Shown in pieces: positions 4,124 through 18,515 of a stretch of DNA of 20,569 nucleotides. Below the pieces are notes generated by a model. It was given only the letters and a program-made list of their open reading frames with translations, searched no databases and was not told the origin of the DNA. The translations under genes were made by a program, and so were the position numbers. Source of the stretch: Armatimonadota bacterium (GTDB taxonomy: Bacteria > Sysuimicrobiota > Sysuimicrobiia > Sysuimicrobiales > Humicultoraceae); contig JBBIJB010000039.1 of assembly GCA_037446215.1 (NCBI GenBank), positions 1 through 20,569 on the forward strand. Reading direction: 5' to 3'. Every line of letters starts with the position of its first letter. The stretch's first letter is position 1.

Positions 4124-5566
4124 CTATGCCGGCTCCACGTCGTGCGGCAGCGACTCCCTCCATCCCGCGGGTGTGATCTGGATGAACTCCGCGCGCTCCT
4201 GCAGCTCGGCGATCGTCCGGGCACCGCAGTAGCTCATCCCGGAGCGTAGTCCCCCGGACATCTGGGCGAGGACATCTCCCGCCTTGCCCCTGTAGGGCAC
4301 CGTGGCCTCGATCCCCTCGGCGACGATCTGGCTGAGATCCTCGTCCTCGACAGGGGCATCGAGGGCTTGTCTGCGGGCGGCCGCCCACAGGCTGGCCATG
4401 CCGCGGTAGGTCTTATACTGCCGGCCGTTGCGGATTATCAATCCCCCGGGGCTCTCGGCCGTTCCGGCCAGCAGGTTGCCCAGCATCACGGTGCTGGCGC
4501 CGGCGGCGAGGGCCTTGGTCATGTCGCCCGAACTCCTGATGCCCCCGTCTGCGATGACCGGGACCCCGCTTCCAGCGGCGGCGGCCGCGCAGTCCATGAT
4601 CGCCGTGAGCTGCGGTACGCCCGCACCGGTCACTATCCGGGTAGTGCAGGTCGACCCCGGGCCGACGCCGACCTTGACCGCGTCGGCGCCGCGCTCGATC
4701 AGGTCGCGCGTCCCCTCCGGGGTGGCGACGTTGCCGGCGACGAGATCGGTGTCGGGGAACCGCCCCCGCAGCTCCTCCAGGGCCGCCAGCGCGGGCTCCG
4801 TGTGCCCGTGGGCCACGTCGAGCACCAGGAGATCAACCCCCTCCTCGACGAGCGCTCCGGCGCGCTCTATGTAGTCGCCCCTGATCCCGACCGCCGCTCC
4901 CACGCGTAGCCGGCCCTTGGCGTCCTTGGTCGCCAGCGGGTGCCTGAGCCGGCTCTGTATGTCTCGGCTCGTGATGAGGCCGCACAGCTTTCCCTCGTCG
5001 TCGACCAATGGGAGCTTCTCGATCCTGTGCCTGTGTATCATCGCCCGCGCCTCTTCCAGCCCGACGGAGGGAGGAGCGGTTACCAGGCGCTCGCGCGGCG
5101 TCATGACCGTGGAGATCGGCTTGTCGAGCCCGTCGGCGAAGAGGAGGTCGCGCGCCGTCACCAAGCCGAGGAGCTGCTCGTCCTCTCCGATCACCAGCAG
5201 GCCTGCCGAGCCGTGCTCGTCCATGAACAGGACCGCGTCGCGCACGGTCCGGTCGGGCGTGAAGCGGTAGGGCTGCTCGATCACGATGCTCTCGGCCCGC
5301 TTGACCTTGCGCGCCTCGGCCACCTGCTGCTCGACCGAGAGGAAGCGGTGGATCACTCCGATCCCGCCGGCCCGCGCCATCGTGACCGCCATCTCGCTCT
5401 CCGTCACCGAGTCCATGTTGGCGCTGACAATCGGGACGGCTACGTCGATGTGGCGCGTGAGGCGTGAGAGCGTGTCCACCTGCGACCGGCTGGTCACGGC
5501 CGATCGCCGCGGCACCAGCAGCACGTCGTCGAACGTCAATCCGGTTCGAAACTGCCGTTCGGGCAT
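4124..5566 (-). CDS. guaB: IMPDH/GMPR-family enzyme with CBS (Bateman) pair, 480 aa; GuaB-like, but motifs suggest GMP reductase (see finding)
   Basis: [25 protein letters not shown] catalytic Cys loop, [18 protein letters not shown] insert, [12 protein letters not shown] 5566 with SD AGGAGG 9 nt upstream. Symbol denotes the family only; function may be GMPR. Confidence 0.9.
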
Positions 5567-13416: not shown

Positions 13417-14595
13417 CTACGCAGTTGATGTCGTACGGACCGCGGGGATGGTGAAGGAGAACGCGCTTCCCTTCCCGAGCCCGCCGCTGGCGGCCCAGAT
13501 CGCTCCCCCGTGGGCTTCGACCAGGTAGCGCGCGATGGTGAGACCCAGCCCGCTTCCTCCCACAGGTCGCGAGCGGGAGCGGTCCACCCGGTAGAAGCGC
13601 TCGAACAGGCGCGGTAGATGCTCCTCGGCAACTCCATGCCCCGTGTCCCGGACTTCTATCTGGATCCACCCGGGCTTGACCCTGGCCGAGATCGTGACGG
13701 CCCCAGGCGGGTCGGTGTATTGGATCGCGTTGCCGATCAGGTTGATCAGCACCTGCTGGATCCGGTTGGGATCGACCTCGGCCGAGGGCAGGCGTTCGGG
13801 GAGCTCCAAGCTCATGAGGAGCCCCTTGTCCTCGGCCTGCGGCCGCAGCCGTTCGGCCACAGCCGTTACGAGGTCCGCCACCGCCGTGGGCCGCCTGCTC
13901 ATCGCCAGCAGGCCTGCGTCCAGCCGCGACAGCTCCTCAAGGTCGCCGACCAGCCGCTGCATCCTGTGCACGTCCGCGGATACCCTTGCGAGGACCTCGG
14001 GCTCCGGGGAGAGCACGCCGTCGGTGAGCCCTTCCACATAGCCCCCGATGCCGGCCAGCGGGGTCCGCAGTTCGTGCGCCACATCGGCCAGCAGGGCGCG
14101 GCGGCGGGCCTCGGTCTTCTGCAGTGCCTCGGCCATCGTGTTGAGGCTGTCGCCGAGCTCCGAGATCTCGTCGCCGCCACCCGCGGGGACCCGCTCTTCG
14201 TAGTGGCCTTCGGCTATCCGGCGGCTGACTCCGGCCATGATCTGCAGGGGATGGGCTACGCGCCGCGCGACCAGGAGGCTTACCGCGCCCGCTGCAAGGA
14301 CCGCGGCGGCGCCACCTACAAGCAGGGCATCCACCAGACCGCTCCTGAAGAGATGCTCGACCGGCGTCGAAGGAGGTCCCCCCAGGCCCCGCCTGCCGCC
14401 CCCGGCTCCGCCTCCTCCTAGGCCGAGCCCCCCGTAGGAGTCGGACGCCTGTATCCTGCGGGCTATCTGGCTCGGGGCGAACAGGCTCGCGGACGCGGTC
14501 AGGACCGCGAGGCCGACAGCGATGACCGCCAGATAGGAGAGGAACAGCCTGGTTGCCAGGCGTCCCCCCGCCCTCGTCACAGTCCTACCCCACAT
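13417..14595 (-). CDS. HAMP-containing sensor histidine kinase (HisKA, BaeS-like)
   Basis: Two TM helices, HAMP (GDEISELGDSLNTMA), H-box DVAHELRTPL, N-box NLIGNAIQY, DTGHG, FERFYR, GSGLGL. Confidence 0.94.
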   Translation of the reverse strand: MWGRTVTRAGGRLATRLFLSYLAVIAVGLAVLTASASLFAPSQIARRIQASDSYGGLGLGGGGAGGGRRGLGGPPSTPVEHLFRSGLVDALLVGGAAAVLAAGAVSLLVARRVAHPLQIMAGVSRRIAEGHYEERVPAGGGDEISELGDSLNTMAEALQKTEARRRALLADVAHELRTPLAGIGGYVEGLTDGVLSPEPEVLARVSADVHRMQRLVGDLEELSRLDAGLLAMSRRPTAVADLVTAVAERLRPQAEDKGLLMSLELPERLPSAEVDPNRIQQVLINLIGNAIQYTDPPGAVTISARVKPGWIQIEVRDTGHGVAEEHLPRLFERFYRVDRSRSRPVGGSGLGLTIARYLVEAHGGAIWAASGGLGKGSAFSFTIPAVRTTSTA

Positions 14596-14607: not shown

Positions 14608-15297
14608 CTATCCTCCGTCGAACCTGTATCCGGCGCCCCTGACCGTGGTGATCACTTCCGGCTTGCTCGGGTCGTCTTCGAGCCTCTTCCGGAGCTCCTT
14701 CACATGGACGTCCACGACCCTCTCATCGCCGTAGAAGTCGCTTCCCCAGACCCTCTCGATGAGCTGGGCTCGGCTGAAGACCAGGCGGGGGTGGGTGGCC
14801 AGCGACAGCAGTATCTCGAACTGCAGGTTGGTCAGAGCCACGGGCTCGCCGTCCTTCCAGACCCGCCGCTCTCCCGGATCTATGCGCAGGCGCTGGAAGA
14901 CCAGCGGCGCCGGCCTCCCGCCCCGGGTGCGCCCCCTTCGTAGGACGGCCTTCACCCTCGCGACCAGCTCGCGGGGGCTGAACGGCTTGGTCAGGTAGTC
15001 GTCGGCTCCGATGCCCAGTCCCAGGACCTTGTCGCTCTCGTCCGAGCGGGCGGTGAGGAGTATCACGTAGGCCTCCGACCACTCCCTGACGCTTCGCAAC
15101 ACCTCGATGCCGTCCAGGCCCGGGAGCATGACGTCCAGCACGATCAGGTCCGGGCGCAGGCGGCGCGCCGCCTCCAGAGCCGCGGTTCCGTCCTCCGCCG
15201 CCTCGACCGCAAACCCGTCGCGCTCCAGGTATCTCCTGACGAGGTCGCGCACGGACTCCTCGTCGTCTACCACCAGCACCGTAGGGGGTGTGGACAT
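14608..15297 (-). CDS. OmpR/PhoB-family response regulator
   Basis: VLVVDDE, LDVMLPGLDG, LLTAR, GADDYLTKPFSPRELVAR; winged helix ERVVDVHVKELRKRL, TVRGAGYRF. Confidence 0.95.
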   Translation of the reverse strand: MSTPPTVLVVDDEESVRDLVRRYLERDGFAVEAAEDGTAALEAARRLRPDLIVLDVMLPGLDGIEVLRSVREWSEAYVILLTARSDESDKVLGLGIGADDYLTKPFSPRELVARVKAVLRRGRTRGGRPAPLVFQRLRIDPGERRVWKDGEPVALTNLQFEILLSLATHPRLVFSRAQLIERVWGSDFYGDERVVDVHVKELRKRLEDDPSKPEVITTVRGAGYRFDGG

Positions 15298-15526: not shown

Positions 15527-15565
15527 TTCCGGGCCAGGGCCAGGGTCTGTACGCTGAAAGTGGCT

Positions 15566-15994
15566 ATGAGTGACAAGGCCCTAAGGGTTCTGGTCGCCGC
15601 GGGCGATGAGAGGTTCCGCGGGGCCCTCGGCGAGCTTGCCGAGGCCTCGCGCAGCCTGCTTCCCACGCAGATCGAAGTTGAACAGGTCTCTTCGCTCGGA
15701 GCGGTCCGCGAGCGCCTTGGCGCCTGGGCGCCCGACGTCCTGATCCTCGACTGGTACCTTGCTGCGGCCGACGTGCTCACCGCCATACAGGAGCTGGCCC
15801 TGGAATACCCCGGCCTCCGAACGCTGGTTCTACTGCCCGACTCCGGCCGTGAGTACCGCGAGGCGGCGTGGAACGCCGGGGCCTGCGCGTGTGTTCCGCG
15901 CGACCGCATAGACCCGGAGTGGCTGCAGGCGATCCTGTGCGTGATGAACCGAGCCAAGGAGCGCGAAGAGAAGATCCGGAGGCAGGTGGCGTGA
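15566..15994 (+). CDS. Stand-alone atypical (pseudo-)receiver domain protein
   Basis: CheY-like pattern LRVLVA...PDVLILDW...YPGLRTLVL...AWNAGA. Acidic pocket, Thr/Ser and Lys are degenerate. TGA overlaps the next ATG. GTG 15560 is an alternative start. Confidence 0.75.
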   Translation: MSDKALRVLVAAGDERFRGALGELAEASRSLLPTQIEVEQVSSLGAVRERLGAWAPDVLILDWYLAAADVLTAIQELALEYPGLRTLVLLPDSGREYREAAWNAGACACVPRDRIDPEWLQAILCVMNRAKEREEKIRRQVA

Positions 15995-17313
15995 TGGCGC
16001 ATTTGCGCGCGCCGATTCGCAGGGTCGGATCGCTCGTCTTCCTGACCGCCCTGGTGGCGATGCTGATTCTCCCGCTGGGAGTGGGCGCGCCGCCCGCGCC
16101 CTCGGGGCCGGCTCAGAGCGGCTGCGTGGCATGCCACACCAGCCGGACGATGCTGGAGCCGCTCGTGCCTCCACTGCCGCCTCCGCCTGCAGAGGGTGAG
16201 GGGTGAGCGGCCCCTCTGCCCCCGTCGGGGGCACCCTACGAGCGAAAGCTGGTTTCTCAGGCGTTCCTGAAGTCGACCCACGGCCGGCTCGGGTGCACGA
16301 CGTGCCACGCCGGAGCGCCGCAGACGCTGGATCGGAACTTGGCGCACAAGGGGCTCGTGCGTAGGCCCTCCGCGGACCCGATCAAGGCATGCGGAACCTG
16401 CCACTCCGAGACCGCCTCGAAGTTCTCGCGGAGCCTGCACTTCACCGCCCGTGGGCTCGAGACAGGGCTGAAGGCGCTCACAGGCCAGGTGCGGTGGGCT
16501 CTGTCGAAACCGACCTACCAGCGCTCGTGCAAGAGCTGCCACGCCACCTGCGGGGATTGCCACGTCAGCCAGCCGCCCTACATACCGCAGCCCCCGACGG
16601 TACTGGGCGGCCTGCTACGCGGGCATGAGTTCGTGCGCACGCCGCCGGCGGATCGGACCTGCGGCGGCTGTCACAGCGGACGGGTCTACGCCGAGTTCAC
16701 CGGCAGCTACGAGGGCTTCCCGGCGGACGTGCACTTCTCCAAGGCGAAGATGACCTGCACCTCGTGCCACACCGCTGCCCAGATGCACGGTGACGGCAGC
16801 ACGCCTGCCTACAGGCGGGAGGTCAAGACCAAGCCCGCCTGTACCGACTGCCACCCGACGGCCGCCCCAGGCAAGAGCAGGCTGCAGGCGCACAACGTCC
16901 ACGGCAACAAGCTCAACTGCGCTGTCTGCCACGGCGGCATCGTCAAGAGCTGCTTCGGCTGCCATGCCGGCGAGGGCTCGAGATCGCAGCCCACGTTCAA
17001 GATCGGCCGGAACACCGACCCAAACATACCCAACGCCTTCACGGTGCTCCGGCACATTCCGACGACCAAGGACATGATCGATCGGCCGACCGGCCTCTCT
17101 GGGGCGCTCGCGAACTTCGACCGAGTCCCCACGTGGAAGCCGGCGACGCCGCACAACATCCAGCGGGTGACGGCTCGCAGCCGCACCTGCGACGCCTGCC
17201 ACAACAACCCAAACCTGTTCCTGCGGCTACAGGACCTTGATCCCAGGGGCTCGCAGGCAAACGGCAGGGTGGTTATGTCGCCACCCCCGCCGCTACCACC
17301 AAGACCAAGGTAG
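15994..17313 (+). CDS. Secreted multiheme cytochrome c (11 CXXCH), putative selenoprotein with Sec71 encoded by in-frame TGA 16204-16206; 439 aa
   Basis: ORF-track pieces 15868..16206 and 16339..17313 share a frame. The bridge is open and reads AAPLPPSGAPYERKLVSQAFLKSTHGRLGCTTCHAG. Signal peptide occurs only in the upstream piece. Heme motifs: CVACH, CTTCH, CGTCH, CKSCH, CGDCH, CGGCH, CTSCH, CTDCH, CAVCH, CFGCH, CDACH. SECIS-like hairpin follows the TGA. Confidence 0.85.
16207..16233 (+). other. Putative bacterial SECIS element
   Basis: UGA, 10 nt, then UGCCCCC-GUC-GGGGGCA: 7-bp stem (16217-16223/16227-16233), apical loop starting with GU, 17 nt between UGA and loop. Confidence 0.75.
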
Positions 17314-17325
17314 GAGGTATTCAGA

Positions 17326-17769
17326 ATGTACAAGAGACTCTCGATAGTCGCCCTGCTGGCAGTAGCGCTGATCGTGGCGCCCGCTGCCGCGGCACCTTCT
17401 CCAACGCCTGGGGACGCCGCCCTTCAGTTCATTACCAACCTGCCCGACGGCTTCCGCAGCATCGCGCCCGCGGCCCTCAAGACCCGGCTGGACGCGGGTG
17501 AGAAGCCGTTCCTGCTCGACGTCCGCGAGCCCAACGAGACCGCGGCGGGCGTCATCGCAGGGGCGGTCGTGATCCCGATCCGCTCCCTCGCCGCGAACAT
17601 GGGCAAGATCCCCACGGTCAAGGAGGCCGAGATCATCGCCATCTGCCAGTCGGGGCTGCGCTCTTCGTACGTGGCCATGGCGCTCGTGATGAACGGCTAC
17701 ACCAACGCCAGGACCATGTCGCTCGGGATGCGCGAGTGGTACGCTCAGAACTGGCCCGTCGTCAAGTAG
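17326..17769 (+). CDS. Secreted single-domain rhodanese (sulfurtransferase)
   Basis: Signal peptide MYKRLSIVALLAVALIVAPAAAA, LLDVREPNE, GVIAGAVVIP, active loop ICQSGLRS, SLGMREW. SD AGGAGG. Confidence 0.92.
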   Translation: MYKRLSIVALLAVALIVAPAAAAPSPTPGDAALQFITNLPDGFRSIAPAALKTRLDAGEKPFLLDVREPNETAAGVIAGAVVIPIRSLAANMGKIPTVKEAEIIAICQSGLRSSYVAMALVMNGYTNARTMSLGMREWYAQNWPVVK

Positions 17770-17852: not shown

Positions 17853-18515
17853 CTAGGGCTCCTCTTCCAGGAGCCCCCTGCGCAGCGCGTAGCTCACCAG
17901 ATCTGCCCGCGTGTTGAGCTCCAGCTTCTCCATTATCCGGGAGCGGTAGGTCTCGACGCTCTTGGGGCTTAGGCCGAGCTGCTCCGCGATCTCGCGGGAG
18001 GTGAAGCCGGAGGCGACCAACTTCAGCACCTCGCGCTCCCGCTCGCTCAGCCGGTCGTAGCTGTCTCGCTCCTCGCCCCTGCTCACGCCCGCGATGACAT
18101 CCTCGAGCAGCCTTCGCGTCATCGCCGGGTGGAGGAAGGCGCCCCCGCCGGCGACCGTGCGGATGGCGGCCACCAGCTCCATGTCGGCGGCGGTCTTGTT
18201 GACGTACCCTGCCGCCCCCGCCTTCAGCACCGGGAACAGGTAGCGCTCCTGAGCGTGCACCGTGAGGATGAGTACCTGTGAGGGGAGGTCAAGGGCCCGT
18301 ATCTGCCGCGTCGCCTCCAGCCCGTCCAGCCCGGGCATGCTGATGTCCATGATCACGACGTCGGGGAGGAGCCGGCCGCTGAGCTCAACCGCCTTGTGGC
18401 CGTCCGATGCCTCGCCCACGACCACCATATCCGCCTCCTGCTCGATCAGCGTGCGCAGGCCGGTGCGCAGCACCGGGTGGTCGTCCGCCAGCAGCACACG
18501 AATCGGCTTAGCCAT
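17853..18515 (-). CDS. NarL/FixJ-family (LuxR-HTH) response regulator, NreC-like
   Basis: VLLADDHPVLR, MDISMPGLDGLEAT, ILTVH, GAAGYVNK; HTH LSEREREVLKLVASGFTSREIAEQLGLSPKSVETYRSRIMEKL. Confidence 0.95.
   Translation of the reverse strand: MAKPIRVLLADDHPVLRTGLRTLIEQEADMVVVGEASDGHKAVELSGRLLPDVVIMDISMPGLDGLEATRQIRALDLPSQVLILTVHAQERYLFPVLKAGAAGYVNKTAADMELVAAIRTVAGGGAFLHPAMTRRLLEDVIAGVSRGEERDSYDRLSEREREVLKLVASGFTSREIAEQLGLSPKSVETYRSRIMEKLELNTRADLVSYALRRGLLEEEP

Follow-up and report, generated by a model that had tools for sequence, protein, structure and literature searches.

A probable bacterial SECIS hairpin inside the coding region of an exported multihaem cytochrome c gene from an Armatimonadota bacterium

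We analysed a stretch of DNA of 20,569 nucleotides (nt) from an Armatimonadota bacterium (assembly GCA_037446215.1, contig JBBIJB010000039.1, here contig C39 of the genome; the whole stretch is referred to as the window). It harbours a gene for an exported cytochrome c with an in-frame TGA at position 16204. A hairpin at 16217-16233, located inside the coding region and 10 nt past this UGA, is very probably a bacterial selenocysteine insertion sequence (SECIS) element. The original prediction, made from the sequence alone, had regarded the hairpin as RNA-level support for selenocysteine (Sec) decoding that is independent of the protein evidence. This is supported by the comparison of homologues, by a bias at synonymous sites and by the Sec machinery encoded in the genome. 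By itself, the hairpin is only suggestive and mildly unusual in a genome with 68% GC, because comparable structures have a background of 1-3% at ordinary TGA stops and in-frame coding sites. On the comparative evidence described below, its significance derives from conservation, covariation and synonymous-site bias among homologues.

Position and structure of the hairpin

The hairpin exists at the place where it had been described. All of its parts lie on the forward strand. The Sec-UGA codon (16204-16206), read from the sequence, is in frame in the open reading frame (ORF) 15994-17313 and corresponds to residue 71 in the motif PPPPAEGEG-U-AAPLPPSGA, the residues around Sec71 being AEGEG-U-AAPLPPSGAPYER. 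A 10-nt spacer, GCGGCCCCTC (16207-16216), likewise read from the sequence, leads to the 5' arm of the stem, UGCCCCC (DNA TGCCCCC; 16217-16223). This is followed by the apical loop GUC (DNA GTC; 16224-16226), defined by sequence and by homologue comparison, and the 3' arm GGGGGCA (16227-16233). The two arms are paired in the minimum free energy (MFE) fold of 16204-16263 and covary with one another, forming a perfect 7-bp helix without a bulge. The free energy of the hairpin by itself is -12.8 kcal/mol. Counting the U of UGA as nt 1, a numbering used throughout, the loop opens with G21 and U22. Direct reading and the MFE fold thus confirmed a 7-bp stem that begins at the 11th nt past the UGA and a GU-first loop at a UGA-to-loop distance of 17 nt. 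The stem is formed by codons 4-9 past Sec (Leu-Pro-Pro-Ser-Gly-Ala, LPPSGA).

We compared the hairpin with published criteria for bacterial SECIS (bSECIS) elements. As far as they are given in PMC13188914 (Fig. 2 legend), these comprise a loop of 3-9 nt on a stem of 4-16 bp, at least one G as the first or second loop nucleotide, with G or U as the usual next base, a UGA-to-loop distance of 16-37 nt, and a free energy no higher than -7.5 kcal/mol. The hairpin of the window agrees with all four (3-nt loop and 7-bp stem, GUC, 17 nt and -12.8 kcal/mol), and with the location expected of a bSECIS, its stem lying 10 nt past an in-frame UGA and inside the ORF. The earlier claim that its geometry is that of SECIS models therefore holds for the criteria set out in that legend.

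The host gene and its homologues

When TGA is read as U, positions 15994-17313 of the forward strand form one open frame of 439 codons with the TGA at codon 71. The read-through protein has a hydrophobic, signal-like N-terminal segment, 11 CxxCH haem-binding motifs and Pfam matches to cytochrome c7/c3. As the hairpin gives RNA-level evidence that the UGA encodes Sec, the two ORFs reported by gene callers are read here as one exported 11-haem selenoprotein. A sequence search of the PDB with the protein returned nothing closer than cytochrome c7 (E = 0.008) and no sequence-related solved structure. An AlphaFold2 model from a 16-sequence alignment was poor, with a mean predicted local distance difference test (pLDDT) score of 50.9 and a predicted template modelling (pTM) score of 0.31.

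The homologue scans returned the best matches, and all totals of homologues given here are to be read as 'at least'. In the set representing the phylum of the window (94 species genomes, one class, one order), 13 genomes had a match, and all 10 other genomes that cover the site have TGA at the same codon. The motif PPPPAEGEG-U-AAPLPPSGA is conserved in these relatives. A scan of GTDB species genomes yielded at least 80 loci from many phyla, among them Chloroflexota, Desulfobacterota (including the isolate Desulfonema magnum), Spirochaetota, Nitrospinota, Rokubacteria, Planctomycetota and Gemmatimonadota. Counting the hot-spring phylum of the window itself, the distribution covers at least eight phylum-level groups. 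An in-frame stop is present at the site in 91 (88 unique) of the 92 covering loci, always TGA and never TAA or TAG, and the motif around it is GEG-U-[AG]G. The remaining locus, L110, has Cys at the aligned codon. Loci L025, L027, L029, L030 and L035, which are fragments or paralogues without the region, were dropped.

Cys also occupies the aligned column in the full-length database proteins P0051, P0060, P0072, P0077, P0081 and P0096. A metagenome scan seeded with Cys forms yielded at least 9 loci with TGC or TGT (8 unique) and at least 68 further loci with TGA. The Sec/Cys column is occupied by Trp (TGG) in P0049, P0053 and P0094, where it immediately follows a Cys in two of the three (..S-C-W-A..), and by Pro in P0067 and P0105; in these Trp and Pro lineages, a shift or loss of the catalytic residue may have taken place. 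Most other database matches span about 80% of the query and start just past the TGA. Relatives in public databases look truncated, and are named 'hypothetical protein' or 'sulfurtransferase'. The Joint Genome Institute (JGI) label for many of the truncated cytochrome homologues is 'thiosulfate/3-mercaptopyruvate sulfurtransferase'.

The splitting of the gene by gene callers, and the listed database homologues that begin past the TGA, would fit a TGA that is a true stop. In that case, a mono-haem ORF of 70 residues would be followed by the hairpin as a terminator, attenuator or pause element, and translation of the downstream cytochrome would be separate. However, there is no U-tract after the stem. 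The earliest ATG, GTG or TTG downstream of the TGA is the TTG at 16339, yet H96 and C101xxCH105, which are invariant in the family, are encoded upstream of it. Because no start precedes these conserved residues, the stretch from the TGA to 16339 can be translated only via read-through of the TGA. In addition, all 91 loci conserve both the frame and the sequence on either side of the TGA, and in the Cys homologues the protein is continuous. We consider a true stop extremely unlikely.

Conservation of the hairpin among homologues

We folded the 38 nt past the UGA in the 88 unique sequences, and the hairpin loop started at nt 21 or 22 in 64 of them. The loops of the homologues are chiefly GUU, GUC, GGU.. 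or AGU... In a strict bSECIS test based on the MFE fold, 87 of the 151 unique Sec-type sequences passed, 71 of the 87 with a spacing of exactly 17 nt. Of the controls from the bacterium's own genome, 45 of 681 ordinary TGA stops passed, as did 94 of 1617 coding positions; 0 of 8 Cys-type sequences passed.

As the strict test under-calls, an ungapped positional search was added, in which at least 6 contiguous bp and a loop start at nt 19-26 were demanded and the other in-frame positions of the same genes served as controls. A stem of at least 6 bp was present in 115 of the 151 Sec-type sequences; 114 also had a G as the first or second loop nucleotide, and in 97 the loop in addition started exactly at nt 21. 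At the 4641 control positions, the corresponding numbers were 325 (7.0%), 117 (2.5%) and 53 (1.1%). None of the 8 unique Cys-type sequences had the stem, with or without the further features. Their genes displayed no enrichment of structure at the site, which ranked at percentiles of 0.05-0.88 within the genes themselves, with a median near 0.4 (n = 8). A covariance model built from the 88 genome-derived sequences, which also captures coding-sequence signal, matched at the TGA site in 68 of 80 independent metagenome loci and in none of the 9 Cys-type loci. The hairpin is thus retained in TGA homologues and lost in Cys homologues (115 of 151 against 0 of 8 with at least 6 bp), the pattern that had been proposed as a check on the original prediction. 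Position, loop G(U) and pairing are conserved and covary in the TGA homologues and are absent from the Cys homologues.

Covariation and two registers

The 135 sequences with at least 5 bp display 25 different versions of the inner 5-nt arm, all of them matched by a complementary partner. Stems differ between clades but stay complementary, examples being GCCCCC/GGGGGC, GGCUCC/GGAGCC, GCCUCC/GGAGGC, GGAGCC/GGCUCC, GGCGCC/GGCGCC, CGCCGGA/UUCGGCG and GCCUG/CAGGC. About half of the family carries the hairpin shifted 3 nt downstream. In the alignment of the 88 sequences (A2), realignment with the covariance model left the shifted sequences in place, the columns of the resulting alignment (A3) being those of A2. 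The sequences were split by a peptide rule (regular expression AG..P.V after Sec) into A4, with 47 sequences including the window, and A5, with 41. L060, the hairpin of which has the other register, nevertheless fell into A5 and was counted as unpaired there.

In A4, 86.9% of the alignment cells are paired in the register of the window, compared with 70.3±1.3% in shuffles and 42-55% with a slid partner. None of 500 shuffles reached the observed value; these shuffle counts are not probabilities, and the slid-partner control, which keeps relatedness, agrees with them. Covariation was looked for in TGA homologues, as had been suggested, and compensatory changes were found in 5 of the 7 pairs of this group (51 cells), with a covariation score of 0.426 against 0.157 for shuffled alignments (0 of 500). 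Examples are a pair with CG in 24 and GC in 17 sequences, and another with UA in 18, CG in 16 and GC in 8. In A5, 91.5% of the cells are paired in that group's own register. Taken together, these alignments indicate that the cytochrome family has two SECIS registers 3 nt apart. The members of A5 (e.g. L045, L055 and L104) are mostly from Desulfobacterota, Syntrophorhabdia and Spirochaetota and have the peptide U-AG-x-PP-x-V, with stems UCCGCC/GGCGGA or bulged UCCCCC/GGGCGGA and loops of 3-6 nt containing GU.

RNA constraint on codons and peptide

The element is also coding sequence, so that RNA pairing constrains both the choice of codons and the choice of amino acids there. With respect to amino acids, the ..LAPLEP.. 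clade has the stem GGCUCC/GGAGCC and the ..VEPLAP.. clade the stem GGAGCC/GGCUCC; Ala and Glu exchange places while the pairing is kept. With respect to codons, we generated 300 synonymous recodings of the window element with the gene's own codon usage, and only 3% were as stable. Across the 88 sequences, the median was 3.7%; 50 sequences did not exceed 5%, 65 did not exceed 10%, and 1 lay above 50%. The joint probability of the synonymous choices that keep all 7 pairs of the window was 0.012 under genome-wide codon usage. This supports the earlier proposal of a constraint by the hairpin on the LPPSGA codons.

A bias at a synonymous site was also observed in the loop. Nucleotide 21 is G in 139 of the 151 unique Sec-type sequences, and 136 of them have GU, either at nt 21-22 or at nt 22-23. 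G21 is a third codon base, and the codon is Pro in 116 of the 151. CCG was used in 109 of these 116 loop-G Pro codons, compared with 40% (1104 of 2758) of the Pro codons elsewhere in the same genes.

Chance level of the hairpin

The occurrence of similar hairpins was estimated in the bacterium's own genome (68.4% GC). The background gene set, a crude one, consisted of its long ORFs with high GC content at third codon positions (1618 ORFs), and SECIS-like geometry was defined as at least 6 bp, a loop start at nt 20-24 and a G in the first two loop positions. Past 681 ordinary TGA stops, equal stability was found in 6.9%, SECIS-like geometry in 2.2% and both in 0.9%. The corresponding values at 4849 random in-frame coding positions were 9.0%, 2.7% and 1.1%. 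A tight criterion was satisfied by 7 of the 681 ordinary TGA stops. The original prediction had named equally strong hairpins, as common past ordinary TGA stops, as a result that would speak against it; at 0.9-2.2% of the 681 stops, this was not the case.

A number of results weigh against the assignment of the hairpin as a SECIS element. Its 60-nt fold is no more stable than its own dinucleotide shuffles (z = -0.10), 80 of 200 shuffles folding equally well or better, and of 330 other in-frame positions in this gene, 5.8% have a 32-nt segment of equal stability. The loop in the window has just 3 nt, and two relatives from the same phylum have a 3-nt loop, GGC, without U. The strict bSECIS test was failed by 64 of the 151 Sec-type sequences, including close relatives with an identical hairpin, because competing pairing of C-runs wins the global fold or the stem is bulged. 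In A2, only 71.3% of the cells are paired in the register of the window, against 60.4±1.1% in shuffled alignments, and RNAalifold gave no consensus structure for all 88 sequences, owing to the shifted register in about half of the family. In A5, pairing is conserved with almost no covariation. The shuffle statistics overstate independence, as the sequences are phylogenetically related. Finally, no Rfam family reached its gathering score in the whole window, and the matches in 16150-16300 were at chance level (E >= 1.7).

The unremarkable energy and the near absence of covariation in A5, together with the fact that LPPSGA naturally gives C-runs and then G-runs, raise the possibility that the hairpin is a by-product of a Pro/Gly-rich peptide (CCN...GGN is self-complementary) in a GC-rich gene. 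It would then have no RNA-level function, and any Sec decoding would rely on something else. On the contrary, recodings that keep the peptide are seldom as stable, both for the window and in the 50 of 88 sequences at or below 5%, and the loop G is maintained at a synonymous site. Clades with differing peptides (LAPLEP, VEPLAP, LPPLEA and APEYSA) keep a complementary stem at the same offset, and the Cys-type homologues are without the hairpin. A by-product is very unlikely in our judgement.

Sec-decoding machinery of the genome

The genome encodes the machinery for Sec decoding. Genes for selB (340.9 bits, over the cut-off), selA (490.6 bits) and tRNA-Sec (69.1 bits) are clustered on contig C16. 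The SelB protein contains the winged-helix domains SelB-wing_2 and SelB-wing_3, and ARAGORN reported a tRNA-SeC whose anticodon is TCA. A selD gene (377 bits) is present on contig C18 and has an in-frame TGA of its own (..MVACAG-U-ASKLPPGDL..; L007). TGA terminates 684 of the 1618 long ORFs of the genome, and is therefore an ordinary stop; an alternative genetic code was rejected on this count.

Taking into account the Trp (TGG) codons at the aligned column in P0049, P0053 and P0094, we considered the possibility of selenium-independent read-through of the UGA by near-cognate Trp or Cys insertion, in which the hairpin would be a generic stimulator and not a ligand of SelB. The complete Sec machinery of the genome argues against this, as do the use of TGA as an ordinary stop and the loop G(U) and 17-nt spacing, which fit the SelB-dependent bSECIS model. 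We regard such read-through as highly improbable.

Binding of SelB and actual insertion of Sec at position 71 are what the SECIS assignment would entail if the element works as in characterised bacterial systems. The apical hairpin, with its G21-U22 loop and GC-rich 7-bp stem, would be bound by SelB through its C-terminal winged-helix domain, and the complex of SelB, GTP and Sec-tRNA(Sec) would thereby be tethered to the mRNA. Once a ribosome arrives at the UGA, Sec-tRNA(Sec) would be delivered in place of release factor 2, and translation would proceed through the remaining 368 codons to give an exported 11-haem cytochrome c with Sec71.

Two further Sec sites of the genome were compared with that of the cytochrome. 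The Sec site of selD has just a weak hairpin of 3-4 bp downstream in the MFE fold. On the minus strand of contig C87 (offset 2260 in the reverse complement), an in-frame TGA lies in a peroxiredoxin-like motif, FYPADFTFV-U-ATEF, and downstream of it is a hairpin with an 8-bp GC-rich stem and a G-first triloop, GGC. The product of this ORF is probably a Sec-peroxiredoxin, and its SECIS would resemble that of the cytochrome in style. The cytochrome and C87 sites share a small G-first triloop on a GC-rich stem, the C87 hairpin being a few nt farther from its UGA, whereas stem sequences and offsets differ among the cytochrome, selD and peroxiredoxin-like sites. The C87 candidate came from a crude genome scan for in-frame TGAs in coding-like flanks, which gave 41 candidates, mostly spurious, and missed the cytochrome site at the thresholds used.

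Comparison with known systems

The SECIS of Escherichia coli fdhF, the prototype of bacterial SECIS elements, has a bulged U in its stem, and G23 and U24 in a larger loop. In contrast, the stem in the window is without a bulge, the loop has 3 nt, and GU is at positions 21 and 22, two nt nearer to the UGA. The window hairpin shares with the bSECIS consensus its site in the ORF 3' of the Sec-UGA, a small loop with G then U and a GC-rich upper stem, and has no sequence similarity to fdhF. As an RNA element, it is very probably an in-ORF bacterial SECIS of ordinary mechanism, and any greater novelty may lie in the protein family.

To our knowledge, MccSep is the only multihaem selenoenzyme characterised so far. 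MccSep (ExtKL, GSU2937-2936) of Geobacter sulfurreducens is described in a 2026 paper (PMC13510729) as a multihaem cytochrome c selenoprotein and polysulfide reductase, and among published systems its SECIS-like element is the one closest to the window hairpin. According to that text, it has in common with the present system a stem-loop less than 30 nt past an in-frame UGA, a periplasmic multihaem cytochrome c gene that is split by gene callers, Sec and Cys forms among its homologues, and a rhodanese-like gene nearby. On the other hand, it has 5 haem motifs as opposed to the 11 CxxCH motifs of the window cytochrome, and its Sec lies in ...IPDG-U-PTPNR before the last ~11-kDa part (PMC13510729), whereas here Sec is residue 71 in GEG-U-[AG]G. 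Against the MccSep/ExtKL model NF040886, the cytochrome locus scored 8.9 bits with a cut-off of 250, and the model was absent from an NCBIfam scan at E <= 0.01. Judging from these scores, the number of haem motifs and the position and motif of Sec, the window protein belongs to a family other than MccSep/ExtKL.

A table in the review PMC13188914 has three cytochrome-type selenoprotein families, namely ExtKL, the GSU2204 family and the TIGR04315 octahaem family. In the NCBIfam scan, the window protein had no match to the ExtKL and GSU2204 families. TIGR04315, the octahaem cytochrome of the tetrathionate-reductase family, was rejected with 19.6 bits against a cut-off of 375. Our literature searches found no description of this 11-haem cytochrome family, though supplementary tables of large selenoproteome surveys, which lay outside that search, may list it. 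The host gene appears to represent an unlisted, widespread family of Sec-containing 11-haem cytochromes.

It is conceivable, though a little short of probable, that this is a second family of multihaem cytochrome c selenoproteins, distinct from MccSep/ExtKL. Such a family would be characterised by 11 haem motifs, an N-terminal Sec in GEG-U-[AG]G, Sec and Cys forms, and a presence in at least eight phylum-level groups. It would have its own SECIS, with a G21-U22 triloop at 17 nt, strong enough to dictate amino-acid swaps, and a link to rhodanese that suggests a Sec enzyme acting on polysulfide- or thiosulfate-like sulfur compounds or on selenium compounds. If true, the selenium-dependent haem chemistry involved in the sulfur cycling of anaerobic and hot-spring habitats would be extended by another multihaem Sec family that is widespread and unrelated to the first. 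The approximately 150 sequences with 25 stem variants provide a clean natural data set on how a SECIS within a coding region constrains protein sequence, and on SelB recognition outside Proteobacteria.

Gene neighbourhood

Downstream of the cytochrome gene, an ORF on the forward strand (17326-17769; 147 residues) starts 12 nt past the cytochrome stop. It has a signal-like N-terminus and matches the rhodanese family (Pfam PF00581) with 51 bits. In single-sequence tblastn searches, 15 of 80 loci, from several phyla, had a rhodanese-like match next to the cytochrome gene, in most cases immediately downstream. On the reading of a second multihaem Sec family, the frequent exported rhodanese downstream would suggest that the cytochrome is a selenoenzyme for sulfur or selenium compounds, for example polysulfide or thiosulfate.

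Upstream, the ORF at 15560-15994 has a weak match to a receiver domain (21 bits, below the Pfam cut-off). Its TGA stop overlaps the ATG of the cytochrome gene by one base (TGATG, 15992-15996), an overlap that suggests translational coupling of the two. The locus is flanked by two complete two-component regulators: a HAMP/HisKA kinase (13417-14595) and an OmpR-type regulator (14608-15297), both on the minus strand, are found on one side, and a LuxR-type regulator (17853-18515), also on the minus strand, on the other.

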